IMG/VR virus record: IMGVR_UViG_2925282926_000001
Location: 59,086-123,085 of that record
Direction: 5' to 3' (one strand)
DNA from: a virus
Lineage: Duplodnaviria; Caudoviricetes
Length of the DNA stretch: 64,000 nt
The notes beneath the pieces were generated by a model, which was not told the origin of the DNA, did not search any database, and was given only the letters and a program-made list of their open reading frames with translations. Both the position numbers and the translations under genes were made by a program. Shown piece after piece: positions 4,962 to 63,620 of this stretch (position 1 is its first letter; each line of letters begins with the position of its first letter).

Positions 4962-6815
4962 CTATTGAATTAAAGCGATGATCTTACGACTGTCTCCGGA
5001 TGATCCGCCTTCTTTGGCGTAACCAATAACTCCAACGTCTGTCTCTGACATAAGAGCACCCATGCTGCCTACCTTTGCGACCTTCTCATTGGGTACTTTA
5101 AATACGTTGACATATGGAGAAGTATTAGATACGAGAGCTAAGTAACTTCCGTCAGGAGATATCGATAATCGGTTTGCAGATTGACTCTTTGCATCTCTTG
5201 AGTCAGTAGCCCGGCACACCTGATCTCCTCGTTGGCTATATGTCAGAATGTCTGGACTGTTGTTAGACTGGACTAAGAATAGTTTCATTTTGCTCGGATG
5301 ATACACTACATCCGATGATTGAACAGGAGTTTTAGTCTGAGTATCAGGAACTTTACTGAAAACATCTCCTACACGCTTGTATGTTATTAATGTAGCTCCG
5401 CCGAAATGCGCAACTGTTAGATAATTTTCGTCATATGAAAAATCAAGACCTCCACCTAGTCCGGGAGGAACTATGGAAGGGTCTGTGATCTTTGACAATA
5501 TGTCACCAGATCGTTTGTAAATCAAGATATACGGGGCTACTGTGTAAGAAATTGCTATAAATACACCGGAAGGTGAGATTGCAATATTTCTAGGTGTGCT
5601 AGAAAGCGGATTAACACTCGGGTCAGCCAATTTTGTGAAAGTGTCACCTGAACGCTTATACATCGCAAAATAAGGAGATACAGAAAGTGTCATATAAATA
5701 TAAGTTCCGTCGTTAGCAGCACGGATGTATGTTACAGATCCTCCCGGTAACACTGTCGGGTCAGGCAACTTAGTAAAGGTATCACCAGAACGCTTATAGA
5801 TCATAAAGTAAGGAGATCCATTAACACCTACATAAAGGTAATCTCCATTCGGCGAGAATGCCAATCCGTTTGGTATGCCTCCAGGCAGAACACTCGGGTT
5901 GGCTAATTTGGTGAATACATCCCCTGAGCGCTTGTATATCAATAGAAACGGGGTAGCATTCGACCCTACAGCCATATAATCGTTTGTCATGGCTATTCCG
6001 ATGCTTGCCGCAGGAGGAGTTGTTGACAGAGCTGGTAACAGTTCTAATGGCGGAGTATACATCCTTACCATATCCCCTTGCGCGATATCCTCGCTATAGG
6101 TGACTGTCATTTCCGTCTGACCAGGTATTTCCACCTCCCCTCCGCCACTATCTGCTAAAAAATCCGACCCTACTTTGCGGAATGTGTACGGCTTTCCAAC
6201 CAACAGATCACCAGATCCGTAGGCTGTGCCGTCCTGTTTCTTGAGCGAAACCGCACCTAGACCGTTGATATTGACAGTAGGGTTTGTCGCACTTGCTACG
6301 TGTGGTACTAGCGTTATCCCAAACCCGTCAGGTAGTGATCCAGGCGCAGGATTTAACGTAACTACATATGCGGAGGACGTTCCGGCAGTCGTGGCGTACC
6401 CCGGTTGACGGATGTAGTTCGCAGTAACCGCGCCAATCTTCTCGTCAGTATAGGTATTAGCGTCGTCCAACGCCTCATCCGCAAAGCTCTGCGCGGAAAC
6501 GATAACATCCGAAATATTAGCGCGGCCGGCCTCGTAGTCATACGCCGTGTGATTCCGCGCCGCCGGTGATCCAGCCGCCCACCCTTTCGCAGTTCCTTCG
6601 AATCCACGCGTACATCCGGTGAGCGTGTTGCCCGTTTTCCCCGTATATAAGATCGTTTCGGCAGTCTCATCGCCGCCCACCGTTACGAGGTTCGGAGCCG
6701 TCGGCAGTTTAGACGCGTCGAGTACGTCAATGCTCGTAGCTGATGCGGTAATATCTGCGGCGAGCTCCGTTCCCGGACTGTTTACCATCGCCGCGTACAT
6801 CGGTAATTGCGCCAT
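4962..6815 (-). CDS. Tail fibre / receptor-binding protein with beta-propeller repeats
   Basis: Conserved N-terminus, DFLADSGG junction, then ~44-aa repeats YKRSGDxFTKLxDPxVLP; lower GC 3' part. Confidence 0.8.
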   Translation of the reverse strand: MAQLPMYAAMVNSPGTELAADITASATSIDVLDASKLPTAPNLVTVGGDETAETILYTGKTGNTLTGCTRGFEGTAKGWAAGSPAARNHTAYDYEAGRANISDVIVSAQSFADEALDDANTYTDEKIGAVTANYIRQPGYATTAGTSSAYVVTLNPAPGSLPDGFGITLVPHVASATNPTVNINGLGAVSLKKQDGTAYGSGDLLVGKPYTFRKVGSDFLADSGGGEVEIPGQTEMTVTYSEDIAQGDMVRMYTPPLELLPALSTTPPAASIGIAMTNDYMAVGSNATPFLLIYKRSGDVFTKLANPSVLPGGIPNGLAFSPNGDYLYVGVNGSPYFMIYKRSGDTFTKLPDPTVLPGGSVTYIRAANDGTYIYMTLSVSPYFAMYKRSGDTFTKLADPSVNPLSSTPRNIAISPSGVFIAISYTVAPYILIYKRSGDILSKITDPSIVPPGLGGGLDFSYDENYLTVAHFGGATLITYKRVGDVFSKVPDTQTKTPVQSSDVVYHPSKMKLFLVQSNNSPDILTYSQRGDQVCRATDSRDAKSQSANRLSISPDGSYLALVSNTSPYVNVFKVPNEKVAKVGSMGALMSETDVGVIGYAKEGGSSGDSRKIIALIQ

Positions 6816-51209: not shown

Positions 51210-51419
51210 AGCGGCCACCTCCGGTTATAATATAGTTAGATAGCGTTGACAAGCGTTATCAACCGTGGTAACATGCTAATTGTGAGTTAAGCGCGTTACC
51301 AAAGATTTACAACATACATATCGTATCAGTATTGGTTAATTGTTAAAAAAGTGTGATATACTCTTTTTGAGAAAAGGTCGGGCTTCTTGCCTGAAACTCC
51401 GACCGTTCTCATTTAACAG

Positions 51420-52076
51420 TTAAACCGCCAAGTATTCGTTAACATCTCCGAAACGATTAGCGTCGTATCCGCGAGATAACTTGCGAAGCTTACGTTTAAC
51501 AAATTCCGGATGCATTCCTAGCGCTTTAGCGAGCGCATTGATGGACTTGTGTTCCGGAGCTCCTCCGCTTTTGCGTTGGAGACCATTCGATACAATTAGC
51601 GTTGTATCGTTATCGACCTTAGCCGGGTCACAGAGACTGCTCAGAAGTTGCCGCTTCTGGGCGTCTTTTTTTTGCGTTAAATTATCGATAGCTATTTCTT
51701 CAGCGGAAACCCCGTCAGTCAGAACGCACATTGCCGTGTGTGATCCGTCTTCTTGTTCCTCCGTTTGATCTGCCGTGATTTGATACCGTTTCTCTCGTCG
51801 AACGTTGCCGCGTTCTAAGAAAACTCGTTTAATTCTCAATGCTGCCGAAAGGGCTTCTCCAAAGTTTTCGACGTCATCCCTAGAGGCCAAGCTCATCATA
51901 GCCTCATCAAAAGACTCCTCAGCGTCGTGCTCATCCCCTCGTCGGCCTCTTACTGTCATAGCGATATGTATCTTGAGGAAGAGCTGTCTTGCCTCTTTGT
52001 ACAGATCGTTGAAGGCTTCCTGTGTGCGGTTCTCTTTGTAAAGTACCGCTAGGCTATTCAGTTGTGTTAAGTTCAA
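51420..52076 (-). CDS. Sigma-factor-like transcription regulator
   Basis: Region-2-like QEAFNDLY...HDAEE.FD; C-terminal HTH SINALAKALGMHPEFVKRKL. Confidence 0.65.
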   Translation of the reverse strand: MNLTQLNSLAVLYKENRTQEAFNDLYKEARQLFLKIHIAMTVRGRRGDEHDAEESFDEAMMSLASRDDVENFGEALSAALRIKRVFLERGNVRREKRYQITADQTEEQEDGSHTAMCVLTDGVSAEEIAIDNLTQKKDAQKRQLLSSLCDPAKVDNDTTLIVSNGLQRKSGGAPEHKSINALAKALGMHPEFVKRKLRKLSRGYDANRFGDVNEYLAV

Positions 52077-52201: not shown

Positions 52202-52435
52202 ATGGGACTCTACCCCGGAGATTGCCGCCTCCAATACTTACTCGATCGTGCAGGTATGTCTCAGGCTGAGCTGTCGCGGCGTACAGGATTGAGTCCTCAG
52301 TATATCAATGGACTAATTAATGAACGCTGGAAAAGAGGAGTAATGAAGTTAGACAAGGCTAGACTTATCTGTGCTGCCTTGAAAATTGAAAACCCTTTTG
52401 ATTTGTATGAGTGGAGATCTGAGAAGCCTGACTGA
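52202..52435 (+). CDS. Cro/CI-type HTH regulator
   Basis: LLDRAGMSQAELSRRTGLSPQYI...DLYEW; GGAGG SD. Confidence 0.85.
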   Translation: MGLYPGDCRLQYLLDRAGMSQAELSRRTGLSPQYINGLINERWKRGVMKLDKARLICAALKIENPFDLYEWRSEKPD

Positions 52436-52518: not shown

Positions 52519-53505
52519 TTACATGATATGACGATATGTGTCGATACTATGTTGCTGTTTCTTGAAAATATTTCTTCTAACAGCGTCTGCAACCGTATTC
52601 CTCACCGTTTCTTCATCGCCAACCTCGTTCGCATCCTTCGCGCCATTCGGCCACCTCGCGTCATATAACTCGCAATATACGCGCATCTTAGCCGCAACCT
52701 CTTCGCGTAACTTCTCTCCTGCGCTGTCGTTATCCGTCCCGATCACAAGCGCTGTCACCGGAGACATCCGAAGCATCTCCGCCTGTATGTCCGTAAACGT
52801 AGATCCGCCGACCGCAATCGCCGGTATTCCGCAGCTCCACAGATATAGAGCATCCGTCTCGCTCTCTACGATAACTACGCGGTCAATCTTACGTGCATAG
52901 ACGAGGTGGATTCCGTATATCATGTTACGGACAGGCGCGCCTCCCTTAGCGTACCAAAACGCCTTGGACCACGTTGCTCGCCACTTTGCGTTAATGATCG
53001 TTCCTTCCGGCGCGTGCCACGGCATAACTACCGCATTCTTATCCGTATCATATCCGCAAGAGAACATACGCTGTACTTCCGGATCAATGCCGCGTCCTGT
53101 TAGATACGGAACGGCTACGGATTTATAAGCGCTAACATCGATCGGCTGCGGTTTAGGCGGAGGCCCTGGCGGCACTAACTTAACGCGCAGTTTAGGCGGA
53201 CCATTCTCCGTTATCTCTCCGCCCATTAACTCATCGCGCGCCTCTTCGTACGTGATATTACGAAGGAACGCGTAAAGTTTGATGGGGCCGCCGCGCGCCC
53301 ATTCCGGATCGTTTGCGCCTGAGTCACGCCAGCACCCGAAATCATCCGCAGCCGGATCGATAATTACGCTGAATGAAGGCGTCTTATCTACGCGGAGACC
53401 GAACGGAGATGATGCGTTAAGTCGTCCGCGTGAGTTCGGTTGTACATTGCGCCAGTCGTACGTGTCGAGCGCGGCCAGGAACATGTCAACGTTTATCTCC
53501 GTCAA
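52519..53505 (-). CDS. Toprim-domain DNA primase
   Basis: YLTGRGI, IVESETDA, TDNDSAG, KDANE. Confidence 0.88.
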   Translation of the reverse strand: MTEINVDMFLAALDTYDWRNVQPNSRGRLNASSPFGLRVDKTPSFSVIIDPAADDFGCWRDSGANDPEWARGGPIKLYAFLRNITYEEARDELMGGEITENGPPKLRVKLVPPGPPPKPQPIDVSAYKSVAVPYLTGRGIDPEVQRMFSCGYDTDKNAVVMPWHAPEGTIINAKWRATWSKAFWYAKGGAPVRNMIYGIHLVYARKIDRVVIVESETDALYLWSCGIPAIAVGGSTFTDIQAEMLRMSPVTALVIGTDNDSAGEKLREEVAAKMRVYCELYDARWPNGAKDANEVGDEETVRNTVADAVRRNIFKKQQHSIDTYRHIM

Positions 53506-53714
53506 GCCACCGCCTCCAATCGAATGATATCGCGAATATCGCGAATGTCTAGCGCGAGAGCGATCTTTTCTAAATGTTCAATACAAATGCGATCGACATA
53601 GCCGCGACAGAGATTGGAGATGGCCGCCGCGCGGATGCCGGTCATTTGCGAAAGCTGTTTCTGGTTCAGCCCTTTTTGCGCAAGAAGCTCTTTGAGAGTA
53701 ATTGTAATTGTCAT
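53502..53714 (-). CDS. Cro-like HTH regulator
   Basis: LKELLAQKGLNQKQLSQMTGIRAAAISNL; AAGGAGG. Confidence 0.85.
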   Translation of the reverse strand: MTITITLKELLAQKGLNQKQLSQMTGIRAAAISNLCRGYVDRICIEHLEKIALALDIRDIRDIIRLEAVA

Positions 53715-53866
53715 TGACGTACCTCCTTGTAAAGAATGATAATACGTATGGATCATGGTATAATGTGTGTAGTTTAGGATTACGCATTACCGTAATTCGC
53801 GTAACGCGTATTTCCGCCTAACATCATAGTAATCCGCGCCATGCGTATTGTCAAGGAGTGTAAGGG

Positions 53867-54082
53867 ATGTCTCAGGAAAATATTATTAATCGTGTAAATG
53901 AATTACTTGCCTCATCTGATCTACAACAGAAACAACTAGCAGAAAGCTTACATATCAAGCCTCAAACGTTTAATGGTTATATGACAGGACACCGGCCATT
54001 CAAACTAGAAGTTATTATCGCGATCGCAGATTTCTTTAAAGTGTCCGTAGATTACGTATTAGGTCGGAGTGATGAGCGGTAA
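53867..54082 (+). CDS. Putative immunity repressor, XRE HTH without S24 peptidase domain
   Basis: QKQLAESL...IADFFKVSVDYVLGRSD; divergent from cro-like gene. Confidence 0.8.
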   Translation: MSQENIINRVNELLASSDLQQKQLAESLHIKPQTFNGYMTGHRPFKLEVIIAIADFFKVSVDYVLGRSDER

Positions 54083-55441
54083 TCAAAAACCGCTCACGCT
54101 CGCAAACTGCTGCGCCTGCCCTTGCGTATCTAACTCGCGCACCACACCGTAATTCGGCAGGTAGACGATCTCCACACGCGTATCCTCGCCGCCGTTCCGT
54201 CCTTTTCCGAGCTCAATAACTCCGCGTCCTTCTTGCGCAAGCGTATCGATACCGAACACGTTAGCCGCGTCCTCCAATATCGCTTTCGACTTCTTAATTC
54301 CTGCGCGTGGTGGTGGACTTAACTCACGCGTCCCGTCTTCGTTCTTTTCTTTCGCGTCTTCCTCGGCCTGCGTAACAACGTGTATTACCGTTTTCGTCTG
54401 ACCCGCAAGTCGTTTGAGCTTAACGGAAGTCGCCGCAACATCTCCGCCAGCCACATTCGAAGTGTTACGCTCGAAGTCCATTAAATAAATCGGATCGACT
54501 ACGACCACGTCCGCATCAATCTCCGCGATATCAACTTCAAGCTGCGCGATAGAACGTTGCGTAAAGTTCTCGCTGTCTGCAGCGCGTATGACGATTCTTC
54601 CCGGAACGACTTCCGCAAGCATATCGACGAATGCCGCAAGTCCACGCTCGTAGTCCGCATCCATCGTTCCCATTAACATAGCGCGGTTATCGAACCCTAC
54701 CGTATAATCTACGCCGTCAATCCGTCTGATTGTTTCGCTGATCCGCGCACTTATCGACGAGTATGCACGCGCCATCCACTCGTACTCCGACATCTCTAGC
54801 GCCCATATGAGAACGTTTGCGCCTTGGAACGCGGCCTCAATCGCGTCCTCCATAACCATAACGGATTTACCGCGGCCGGATCTCGCATACCAGGCGTAAG
54901 TGTTGCCGGAAAAGTAGCCGCCGATCTTCTCGTTTATCGTCCCGAACTTGCTGAGCCAGATACGGAATGATGTGCCGGCTTTACGTGCGCGAAACTCCGT
55001 TAGAAATCGTTCGCCTGCGGTGGAAATATCCGTCATGTTCGGAACACCTGTTCGTGTTTCCATTTTAATCCGCGAAAGTCTATCGGTCAAGCTATTAATG
55101 AACGCTTCCGTCGGCAACGTCTCGTAAGACTGCGTAAACTCTGGACTGTTAATATATTCCGCTAATTCCCGCTTGCCGGTCGCGTCCTTTAGTTCGCCGG
55201 CCAGGTATTCGAAAGAGTCCGTTACCTCCGGAATATACGTTACTGTTCGTACATTCGCGGAGTAAGTTGCGTATGACGGCGCATCTCCGCCGTTTTCAGC
55301 CCCGAATTTAACGATAAAATCGTATGCCTCGCGTTCGGCCGGCGTCGAAAAGTCCGATCGCTTAACGTTGTATTTTGCGAGGGCTTGCGTACTACCCGTA
55401 TCGATAATCTTAGAAAGCAATTGCTGACCTGTAACTGCCAT
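54083..55441 (-). CDS. DnaB-like (SF4) replicative helicase
   Basis: ARSGRGKS, ALEM, VVVDPIYLM, VTQA, KGRNGG. Confidence 0.92.
   Translation of the reverse strand: MAVTGQQLLSKIIDTGSTQALAKYNVKRSDFSTPAEREAYDFIVKFGAENGGDAPSYATYSANVRTVTYIPEVTDSFEYLAGELKDATGKRELAEYINSPEFTQSYETLPTEAFINSLTDRLSRIKMETRTGVPNMTDISTAGERFLTEFRARKAGTSFRIWLSKFGTINEKIGGYFSGNTYAWYARSGRGKSVMVMEDAIEAAFQGANVLIWALEMSEYEWMARAYSSISARISETIRRIDGVDYTVGFDNRAMLMGTMDADYERGLAAFVDMLAEVVPGRIVIRAADSENFTQRSIAQLEVDIAEIDADVVVVDPIYLMDFERNTSNVAGGDVAATSVKLKRLAGQTKTVIHVVTQAEEDAKEKNEDGTRELSPPPRAGIKKSKAILEDAANVFGIDTLAQEGRGVIELGKGRNGGEDTRVEIVYLPNYGVVRELDTQGQAQQFASVSGF
55041..55090 (-). promoter_or_regulatory. Intragenic SigA promoter with LexA (Cheo) box
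   Basis: TTGACC-17-TAAAAT then CGAACAGGTGTTCC. Confidence 0.7.
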
Positions 55442-55703: not shown

Positions 55704-56480
55704 TTATGCTCGCTTTAATCCGCGATGACTAATTCCGACAAACTCACGCTCAATACAGCGGTCACGAATCCGGTCGATCAAACGCGGAGTTGTCTCGCGT
55801 AACACCGTGCCGAGGTCTTTTAGCGCAACGTTAGACGTATACACCGTCACCAATTCGTTAGTCACACGGTAGTTAATCACGCTATGCAAGTCGCTACGAA
55901 ATCCCTCGGTATCTTCGCGCACACCGATATCGTCTAGCACCGCAAATGGCGTATTTTTAGCGTGCTGCATTTGCGCGTAATATTGGCGTGCTGCGGGCTC
56001 CGCAACATCGTCGGGCACTCTCGGTCGGTTGAACTCCGTATAGAGCGTTTGCCACGCGTTTACATCGAGAAAATACGCCGGTCGATCAAGCGCTTGCCTG
56101 TTGCGCTGGATTGATCCGATATAATGGCGCACGATGTACTCACCGATGATTGCGGCCGCCGTCGTAGTCTTACCGGTGCCCGGTCCGTCGCTGTGCAAGT
56201 ATAGCGATTTGATAGGCTCATCCGGTGACTCTTCGAACTGTCGCGCAAATGTCTTAACGTACGCTTCCAATGCGCGGTAAATTGACGCCTGGCCTTCGCG
56301 TGCTGGCGAATTAGCTAGCGTTAAACCGCGATATCCTGACGGTAAGTTTGCCGCGCCTACACGTCCGCCTGCGCCGTTTAAACCGTGCGTTGCGATATAA
56401 CTCGGGCACATCTTCGTACATTGTGCGCCGTCTGCTAACGAACAGTGCTGCGCGAGTATGCAGTTTTTAGCGTTGGACAA
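55704..56480 (-). CDS. DnaC/IstB-like helicase loader ATPase
   Basis: GPGTGKT, VLDDIG, INYR...VYTSN, DRI. Confidence 0.88.
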   Translation of the reverse strand: MSNAKNCILAQHCSLADGAQCTKMCPSYIATHGLNGAGGRVGAANLPSGYRGLTLANSPAREGQASIYRALEAYVKTFARQFEESPDEPIKSLYLHSDGPGTGKTTTAAAIIGEYIVRHYIGSIQRNRQALDRPAYFLDVNAWQTLYTEFNRPRVPDDVAEPAARQYYAQMQHAKNTPFAVLDDIGVREDTEGFRSDLHSVINYRVTNELVTVYTSNVALKDLGTVLRETTPRLIDRIRDRCIEREFVGISHRGLKRA

Positions 56481-59007: not shown

Positions 59008-59370
59008 TTAATCCTCCGTTGATAGTTTTGCGATGATGGCCGCGAGTCCGATCGCTTCTGGCGCGCTGTATTCTCCGGCAACCGTTACAATGTAGGTTCC
59101 GTATTGATCGAATAGAGAACATTCGTGACCGTAGTCGTTATTAAAACGGTCTATCCGCGATGAGGGAAATAGGCCGATAACTTTCCACGCGGCATTCATA
59201 TCCGATGTGTACGCTGAATACTGTCTCACGCCGGTCACACCGTACTCATACGCATCATTTGCGCGTTCGATAGCGATTAGATTCCATCCGAAGAATAGCT
59301 CCGCAATCCACGCGTCCCTCTCACGCGCTGACATTACGCCCCACTTTGCGATGATTTCTTCTCGTTTCAT
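59008..59370 (-). CDS. Conserved phage hypothetical protein
   Basis: RERD..IAE..FGW, YTSDMNAAW.V, APEAI.LAA. Confidence 0.65.
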   Translation of the reverse strand: MKREEIIAKWGVMSARERDAWIAELFFGWNLIAIERANDAYEYGVTGVRQYSAYTSDMNAAWKVIGLFPSSRIDRFNNDYGHECSLFDQYGTYIVTVAGEYSAPEAIGLAAIIAKLSTED

Positions 59371-62576: not shown

Positions 62577-63620
62577 TTATCGTTTTATTTTGCGCGGCTT
62601 TTCTAACTTACCAATAACAGCGTTTAACGGAGAGAACTCGTCGTGATTCTTCTTTACGTTCTTGTCAGATAGGTGCGTATAGTGAGCCGTCATTCGGCCG
62701 TCAGCATGTCCGAGGATTACCTGCAGGTGGCGTTGTGATCCGCCTTCCTCAAGAAACAACGTCGCCCCGGAGTGTCGAAGTAAATGCGGATATACACGCT
62801 TCTCAATCCCGGCTCGGTCCGCATATTTCTTCAATTGATGGCGGAAGTGATTTGGAAGCAAGCGCTCACCGTAGTTGTTTAAAAAGATATACTCGCTGTC
62901 AAACTCCGTAGTCTCGCGTATCAACTCCTGCATCAACTTAGCGGTTCTTTTGGTGATCGGCACAACACGCGGCTTACGAGACTTCGTTATCTCTCTCCGT
63001 AAGGTAGCGTAACAAGCGCTCAGGTCAACGTCTTCCTTACGTAATGTCAACGCCTCATCTACGCGGAGCATTCCGTCAATTAACAGGTTCATAACAACGA
63101 AATCACGGAAGTCGCTATAGTTACGTTGATTAGGCGCTTTAATGAGGCGATTCATTTCCTCCGCGGTCAGTACGTCAATGTCGCGTCCAATATCCTGTAC
63201 GTTCTTGAGATACACGAATGGGTCCGCATCGATTACGTCCTCTTCTTTTAGGAACTTGAACATCGTTTTCATATTCTTAATCCGCGTGTTAATTGACTTC
63301 GGTAGTAAGCCGACCGTTCGGACCGATTCAGGAACGTTACAATTATCGCTGAACTTTACTTTTTCATCACGGAGCCATATTACGTACTCCCGTCCGACCT
63401 CTACATCAATATTCCGTATGTCGCGGATAATGCCCCGTTCGTCCAGGAACTCGCAGAAGTATGTAAAATTCTGAACGTATGTTTTCAGCGTATTTTCTGC
63501 GCGGCCTTCCGACTTCTTCGCCTGATAGTAGTAATCAAACAAGTATTCTAACGAGTATTGAAGACGCTCCGACGTCCTCCCTTTTTTGACCGCGCGGCCC
63601 TTCCGTTTATCTTCGCTCAA
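62577..63620 (-). CDS. Tyrosine integrase
   Basis: GMLRVDE (R), TKSRK (K), HLLRH, LGH...AHY catalytic residues. Confidence 0.95.
   Translation of the reverse strand: MSEDKRKGRAVKKGRTSERLQYSLEYLFDYYYQAKKSEGRAENTLKTYVQNFTYFCEFLDERGIIRDIRNIDVEVGREYVIWLRDEKVKFSDNCNVPESVRTVGLLPKSINTRIKNMKTMFKFLKEEDVIDADPFVYLKNVQDIGRDIDVLTAEEMNRLIKAPNQRNYSDFRDFVVMNLLIDGMLRVDEALTLRKEDVDLSACYATLRREITKSRKPRVVPITKRTAKLMQELIRETTEFDSEYIFLNNYGERLLPNHFRHQLKKYADRAGIEKRVYPHLLRHSGATLFLEEGGSQRHLQVILGHADGRMTAHYTHLSDKNVKKNHDEFSPLNAVIGKLEKPRKIKR

Follow-up and report, generated by a model that had tools for sequence, protein, structure and literature searches.

A candidate LexA-controlled promoter written into the replicative helicase gene of temperate Bacillota phages

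How might a temperate phage that carries small repressors without a cleavage domain sense damage to the DNA of its host? The question is raised by a 64,000-nucleotide (nt) stretch of viral DNA, positions 59,086 to 123,085 of the IMG/VR record IMGVR_UViG_2925282926_000001, which we refer to as the window and which forms the last 64 kb of a 123-kb 'provirus' record. An earlier reading of the window, made from its sequence alone, had noticed a promoter and a box for host LexA inside the gene for a DnaB-like helicase, and had proposed that release of LexA fires transcription through a neighbouring, convergent repressor gene. The window contains four HTH_3-type genes, for proteins of 70, 71 and 77 amino acids (aa) together with one open frame of 81 codons. 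That none of these four XRE/Cro-type proteins has an S24 autocleavage domain, and that an ImmA-like protease is missing, held true when the search was extended to the whole 123-kb record, which gave no match to Peptidase_S24, Peptidase_M78 (ImmA) or LexA anywhere. A repressor lacking a RecA-dependent cleavage domain, as is found here, is one of the features by which LexA-controlled antirepressor modules are recognised. We propose, with a probability of about 0.6, that a host LexA operator covers the start region of a sigma-A-type promoter within the helicase linker, and that transcription released by the SOS response would read through from it to the phage regulators downstream.

The coordinates of the two hexamers on the minus strand, their 17-nt spacing and the location of the box at the expected +1 were all verified (Table 1). 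The box, CGAACAGGTGTTCC, codes for T-R-T-G-V-P, residues 129-134 of the helicase, which lie ahead of the DnaB_C domain in a linker that is variable among relatives; the description of the box as double-coded in this linker was borne out. Such an arrangement, with the box adjoining the -10 hexamer, is one in which bound LexA would be expected to block RNA polymerase. Within the window the core GAAC-N4-GTTC was observed once against 1.57 expected, with at least one copy in 81 of 100 shuffles, and promoter-like sites numbered 25 against 17.2 ± 4.3 expected in 14 kb, the internal promoter scoring 10/12 as did several others. Since both motifs occur at chance level in this single sequence, the case rests on comparison.

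Homologues were gathered from genome and viral contig collections, giving 96 distinct helicase genes of 31-89% identity from Bacillota prophages and phages (genera Paenibacillus, Neobacillus, Bacillus, Brevibacillus, Oceanobacillus, Sporosarcina, Exiguobacterium and others). The core GAAC-N4-GTTC was present at the position equivalent to residues 128-132 in 63 of the 96. After clustering, it was found at the equivalent site in 29/55 clusters at 70% identity and in 7/17 at 50% identity, and the remaining ~630 kb of the homologue loci held ~16 further boxes, a number near chance. Several of the 'box-less' genes are single-mismatch variants that still have the promoter. Other lineages carry the box elsewhere: it lies 31-77 nt upstream of the helicase start in L013, L105 and L110, with a promoter-like site there in L105 and L110, and perfect boxes occur after the primase gene in L049, L131 and L127, which have no internal box. 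These relocated boxes, at either place, suggest read-through into the downstream regulatory module as a common theme.

The promoter was counted in the 96 homologues together with 12 named phages, a set in which 68 genes bear the box (63 homologues and five named phages). The pattern TTGnnn-17 nt-TAnnnT, ending 2, 6 or 8 nt before the box, was found in 61 of these 68, always with a spacer of 17 nt, while the frequency of this pattern elsewhere in the genes is 3.6e-4 per nt, giving 0.004 expected per gene. In 58/68 the N4 spacer of the box agrees with RNRY, as in the Bacillus consensus. The TTG of the -35 is always a Leu codon, and the TAnnnT of the -10 is kept while the residues vary (IKM, ITM, IRM, AIM, IKL and IKI). 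The box itself occurs in two reading frames, which specify the different peptides R/G-T-x-V-R/P and N-T-S-S, and in a helicase tree built with FastTree the second frame (N-T-S-S) arises at least five times beside sisters with the first. Conversely, phage BC-6 keeps R-T-S without the box, and L110 keeps G-T-T-V-R without an internal box. Synonymous identity was scanned over 71 representatives of <80% identity, chosen irrespective of the box, and the twelve best scan windows of the 452-codon gene all fell within residues 112-133, with a peak of 0.657 against a mean of 0.405 (standard deviation 0.064). The sequence-only reading had named conservation of the box in homologous helicases as a check on its proposal, and such conservation was observed, in the recurrence of the box at one site in 63/96 homologues and in the top synonymous conservation there. 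The two frames, the varying -10 residues and the synonymous peak argue for selection on the DNA rather than on the peptide, and promoter and operator together very probably constitute a selected DNA element.

Two further observations concern the same patch of DNA. Among close sisters (L036/L042, L114/L117, L037/L093, L096/L120, L039), two alternative 19-nt segments following the -10 recur at least five times; the box lies 2 nt past the -10 in one and 6 nt past it in the other, hence the different frame. This suggests an exchange of short alleles that set the position of the operator. The two halves of the helicase also appear to have different histories, with the break at the promoter and box: compared with the helicase of the window, L009 is 75% identical before the box and 35% after it, and L005 is 74% identical before and 95% after (L006 was also compared). 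The conserved patch may be a joint at which modules recombine.

As to the protein that binds the box, the LexA motif was examined in related Paenibacillus and Neobacillus genomes and not in this prophage's own host. lexA is present in all five genomes that carry related prophages, with a perfect GAAC-N4-GTTC upstream in each and two boxes in four of the five, located 47-213 nt upstream where measured. The recA gene of the host genus carries CGAATGTATGTTCG, a conserved one-mismatch box, at about -90 (-89 to -94); no perfect box was found upstream of recA in the related host genomes examined. On this evidence LexA is probably the binder of the box.

Of the named phages, five carry the element: the temperate Bacillus phages phi18-2, 268TH007, KLEB27-1 and Mgbh1, and Lietuvens, a phage of Sporosarcina; the temperate character of 268TH007 has been described (PMC9476937). 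Five virulent relatives lack both promoter and box, namely Enterococcus phages SAP6 and EH93P1, Listeria phage P70, Carnobacterium phage cd4 and B. cereus phage BC-6. They make up a separate clade and gave no match to an integrase. P. larvae phages Tripp and Halcyone are also without the element. A tyrosine-recombinase (integrase-family) match was obtained for 5/5 of the box-bearing named phages, that of Lietuvens being short (189 aa only), versus 1/7 of those without the box (p = 0.015). Apart from the helicase box, the complete genomes of 268TH007 and KLEB27-1 contain no perfect Cheo core. Mgbh1 (KU665491.1) has, besides its helicase box, tandem perfect Cheo cores 16 nt apart at 714-741, near the left end of the genome.

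We then considered what the promoter could serve. The constant gene downstream of it is the primase, often across a gap of <110 nt. In most members the module after the primase contains one reversed XRE gene or two; AimR comes next in Bacillaceae members, and a protein of ~200-220 aa in Paenibacillus members. For phi18-2, the first convincing plus-strand terminator past the internal promoter lies just after aimR. On the minus strand of the window, the terminator scan gave no U-tract terminator-like site, apart from one weak 5-bp (base-pair) site, from 55040 to the hairpin just 3' of the gene for a 218-aa protein. Searches of Pfam, PHROGs and PDB sequences with this protein gave no hit. Its AlphaFold model has residues 1-100 at a predicted local distance difference test score (pLDDT) of ~90, and all of the ~50 matches listed by Foldseek in the PDB were sigma factors, at weak scores (E = 0.009-0.3, template modelling (TM) score ~0.3).

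The 218-aa gene and the 77-aa XRE gene are divergent neighbours, separated by the intergenic segment 52077-52201. Two allelic pairs seem to co-vary in relatives, as read from translations of open reading frames (ORFs) with the pairing untallied: the 77-aa type with the 205-218-aa type, and a 'MYEVGKCRL' type with a 196-aa HTH_16 type. The 77-aa XRE gene and the sigma-like gene thus look like a cognate repressor-activator pair.

The module after the primase, the relocated boxes and the terminator positions favour a model of read-through into the regulatory module. In a lysogen, LexA would hold the internal promoter shut. Upon DNA damage LexA would be removed, and the transcript would cross the rest of the helicase gene, run antisense over the 71-aa XRE gene, continue through the cro-like gene and the primase, run antisense over the 77-aa XRE gene and reach the sigma-like gene, to stop at the hairpin near 51.4 kb. 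The lytic regulators of a phage with small non-cleavable XRE repressors would in this way receive an SOS signal directly, and collision with repressor transcription would be a side effect at most, in some lineages only. We regard the chances that the element is indeed the phage's SOS input as even. A broader version of the model, which we consider rather doubtful, would make the helicase-internal promoter the main, and often the only, SOS sensor of widespread temperate Bacillota siphophages of ~60-68 kb, including arbitrium phages without an aimX LexA site. Induction would then be free of antirepressors, with read-through that bypasses and collides with the XRE repressors and delivers an activator (the sigma-like protein or AimR).

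Several points weigh against the read-through model. Taken from the window sequence alone, box and promoter are at chance level, and about one third of the family has no perfect box. Some 1 kb separates the promoter from the start of the next gene. Within the helicase homologues neither a conserved in-frame start with a Shine-Dalgarno sequence nor a nested alternative-frame ORF was seen, and a conserved small ORF in the gap between helicase and primase was not found, this gap being filled with variable cargo or absent. The small antirepressor ORF that lies directly 3' of the LexA-controlled promoter in an antirepressor module was not found here. A hairpin at the end of the helicase gene (Table 1) could halt part of the transcripts from the internal promoter, the model-based assignment of the 218-aa protein to the sigma factors is weak, and the LexA motif is known from related hosts only. 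Small minus-strand ORFs opposite the XRE genes (28, 31 and 44 aa) were considered as products and rejected, their frames being broken in relatives.

On the model of the sequence-only reading, the promoter would be there to launch convergent, antisense transcription across the 71-aa repressor gene, so that collision or antisense RNA silences the repressor and causes induction. The geometry behind this idea is real in the window: the helicase stop codon (54083-54085) directly abuts that of the 71-aa HTH_3 gene (plus strand, 53867-54082), and the repressor lacks a cleavage domain. The accompanying claim that the two stops have no terminator between them needs qualifying: no U-tract terminator is present, but a stable, G+C-rich hairpin spans both stop codons exactly at the junction; the terminator scan did not list it. 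Nor does the geometry appear to be a conserved purpose. Downstream sequence was sufficient at 49 box-bearing and 26 box-less loci, and a reversed XRE gene abuts the helicase in just 12/49 of the former versus 3/26 of the latter (Fisher p = 0.23). Some reversed HTH (helix-turn-helix) gene does lie downstream in 38/49 box-bearing loci, and the reversed regulator of the named Bacillus phages extends into the 3' end of the primase gene, both of which would suit an antisense function; yet such genes are similarly common in box-less loci (17/26, p = 0.28), leaving no association of the box with reversed XRE genes, and 11/49 box-bearing loci have no reversed HTH gene in at least 2.3 kb downstream. 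A comparable antisense mechanism for aimX/aimC of phi106-type Bacillus phages has been discarded on experimental grounds, a small antirepressor ORF being favoured instead (bioRxiv 10.1101/2025.11.23.689978). Because the abutting XRE gene is not co-conserved with the box, antisense silencing is unlikely to be what the promoter is kept for, and collision or antisense transcription is a possible lineage-specific consequence rather than a conserved function. The promoter might instead make the replication module damage-inducible, either from the primase onward or through transcriptional activation of a nearby origin, and so drive replication of the prophage in place rather than switch a regulator. 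It is true that the primase alone always follows the promoter, that a LexA promoter precedes the whole helicase gene in L013, L105 and L110, and that no regulator ORF is dedicated to the promoter. The internal promoter cannot, however, yield full-length helicase, for which an upstream promoter would still be needed, and the box-less lineages with LexA boxes after the primase have them beside regulators. Iterons or an A+T-rich tract were not noticed beside the box on reading the sequence, where no repeat or composition scan was run, and the strict 17-nt spacer argues for a promoter; a replication origin at the site was accordingly rejected, and damage-inducible replication as a whole is quite unlikely in our view.

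Two other explanations concern the motifs themselves. The palindrome could merely resemble a Cheo box and serve a different binding protein, either encoded by the phage or a further host factor. The flanks of the phage boxes (A..G, C..C) and their spacers (AAGC, AAGT) vary less than their counterparts in host SOS boxes, but the invariant part is exactly the GAAC-N4-GTTC that precedes lexA and recA in the host genus, and it is kept in phages of many genera, all with LexA-type SOS systems, while the adjoining phage regulators differ in allelic type. We therefore hold a different binder to be very unlikely. It could also be argued that the site has no regulatory function and that a conserved linker peptide together with codon bias gives rise to a coincidental likeness to a promoter and a box, as the chance level of both motifs in the window and the peptide type I-K-M-R-T-S-V-R shared by many members might suggest. 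This explanation is hardly credible given that the box is kept in two frames with different peptides, that TAnnnT is kept despite residue changes with the spacer always at 17, and that the synonymous sites at the box are the most conserved in the gene; moreover, BC-6 (R-T-S) and L110 (G-T-T-V-R) retain the peptide without the box, and virulent relatives lack all three elements. Read-through from a LexA-controlled promoter into the regulatory module remains the explanation that we favour.

The features of the window are collected in Table 1. Its genes are nearly all on the minus strand, with the structural genes farther left of the primase. The prophage is one of Paenibacillus. The nearest relatives of its helicase are found in Paenibacillus prophages (P. 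tundrae, 89% identity) and in IMG/VR contigs of 60-68 kb. A second tyrosine integrase in the record, at G000:C1:56727-57266, lies just left of the window and ~65 kb from the integrase at 62577-63620; given the two integrases, the 123-kb record probably represents two adjacent prophages, of which the window is the second. The position of the 71-aa XRE protein is occupied in relatives by three allelic types. Two 28-nt direct repeats (53785-53812 and 53822-53849; 37 nt apart, 75% alike) overlap the minus-strand promoter-like site before the cro-like gene and are candidate operators of the 71-aa/70-aa HTH pair; with the facing promoter-like sites they form a predicted local switch region adjoining the 71-aa gene. 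Among the relatives, L049/L050 (a Thermoactinomyces prophage) has two near-consensus Cheo boxes, AGAACGTATGTTCT and AGAACATATGTTCT, 74 nt apart at 5757-5842, within the 570 nt that separate the primase from the following forward gene (243 aa). The L049 gene behind these two boxes was considered as a relative of the sigma-like gene and rejected, since hhalign found no link to the 218-aa family and Pfam gave nothing.

Table 1. Features of the helicase region and of the surrounding window (window coordinates).
Feature	Position	Strand	Remarks
-35 hexamer TTGACC	55090-55085	minus	TTG is a helicase Leu codon
-10 hexamer TAAAAT	55067-55062	minus	in codons for R-I-K-M; spacer to -35 of 17 nt
LexA (Cheo) box CGAACAGGTGTTCC, putative operator	55054-55041	minus	palindromic core GAAC-N4-GTTC; begins 8 nt past the -10, at the expected +1
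Helicase interdomain linker, carrier of promoter and putative operator	within 54083-55441	minus	between N-terminal part and DnaB_C domain
DnaB-like replicative helicase, 452 aa	54083-55441	minus	Pfam DnaB_C E = 1.7e-10, residues 165-430
G+C-rich hairpin, 8-9 bp, over the abutting stops	~54067-54101		-25.3 and -26.9 kcal/mol, z -2.8 and -3.4; no U-tract on either strand
71-aa XRE/HTH_3 protein (XRE-A)	53867-54082	plus	convergent with helicase; no cleavage domain; Pfam HTH_3 E = 4.3e-9; PHROG transcriptional regulator/repressor
Divergent control region between 71-aa and 70-aa HTH genes	53715-53866
Facing promoter-like sites in the control region	53854-53826; 53736-53764	minus; plus
Cro-like 70-aa HTH protein	53502-53714	minus	ATG start behind AAGGAGGT; longer ORF extends to 53756
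Toprim-type DNA primase	52519-53505	minus	Pfam Toprim_2 E = 4.6e-12
77-aa XRE protein (XRE-B)	52202-52435	plus	convergent with primase; divergent from sigma-like gene
218-aa sigma-factor-like protein	51420-52076	minus	no Pfam/PHROG hit; last gene of the putative SOS transcription unit
Terminator-like hairpin then U-run	51368-51411	minus	just 3' of sigma-like gene; -25.8 kcal/mol, z -5.2
DnaC-like loader	55704-56480
Tyrosine integrase	62577-63620

LexA-controlled phage promoters are well known, but they have been sought upstream of genes, and here one seems to be written into the coding sequence of a helicase; searches of the literature yielded no report of a LexA box within the helicase gene of a phage. 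The element is kept across many genera by differing coding solutions, namely two frames, varied -10 residues and a move upstream of the gene. Scans for regulator sites that are restricted to intergenic DNA miss conserved intragenic sites of this kind. If the model is true, it would show how temperate phages whose small repressors cannot be cleaved are tied to the SOS response with no recognisable antirepressor involved. Many extended arbitrium phages are without a LexA site upstream of aimX (bioRxiv 10.1101/2025.11.23.689978), and the helicase site may be a candidate answer to these missing sites, at least in the phi18-2/268TH007 group. As the same element is found in phi18-2 and 268TH007, cultured temperate phages of B. 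subtilis, the proposal is directly testable.

Several known systems resemble the arrangement proposed here. The p95-tum module of coliphage 186 is a LexA-repressed antirepressor module. LexA also controls the antirepressors Sar of phi3T/SPbeta (bioRxiv 10.1101/2025.11.27.690993) and AimX of phi106-type arbitrium phages (bioRxiv 10.1101/2025.11.23.689978). With Tum, Sar and AimX our candidate shares host LexA, rather than self-cleavage of a repressor, as the presumed damage sensor, a repressor without a cleavage domain and the Bacillota GAAC-N4-GTTC box. Their sites, however, are intergenic and stand directly before a small antirepressor gene, whereas the present site is inside the helicase ORF, at a distance from the next gene and with no conserved small ORF.

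Direct repression by LexA of a phage promoter is exemplified by PrstA of CTXphi. The lytic promoter of the Bacillus thuringiensis tectivirus GIL01 is likewise repressed directly (PMC9700832). As in these two phages, the promoter that LexA would close directly here leads into lytic or replication genes of the phage. LexA and a small phage protein reportedly act as the main repressor of GIL01 at an intergenic promoter, whereas in our case XRE repressors of the phage coexist with the LexA site, which is intragenic and double-coded. An antisense RNA is familiar from lambda oop. Convergent promoters form the switch of coliphage 186, pR versus pL (PMC5001618, PMC7708051). Both systems resemble ours in the face-to-face arrangement of lytic-direction and repressor-direction units, which gives scope for transcriptional interference; they differ in that the convergent partner is not co-conserved here and that the promoters are >1 kb apart. 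Finally, the Cheo-box SOS promoters of Bacillota such as those of lexA and recA have the same core palindrome overlapping or adjoining a sigma-A promoter. Theirs are intergenic, whereas the candidate operator described here lies in a protein-coding linker and appears to be kept there through synonymous and frame-shifted coding solutions.

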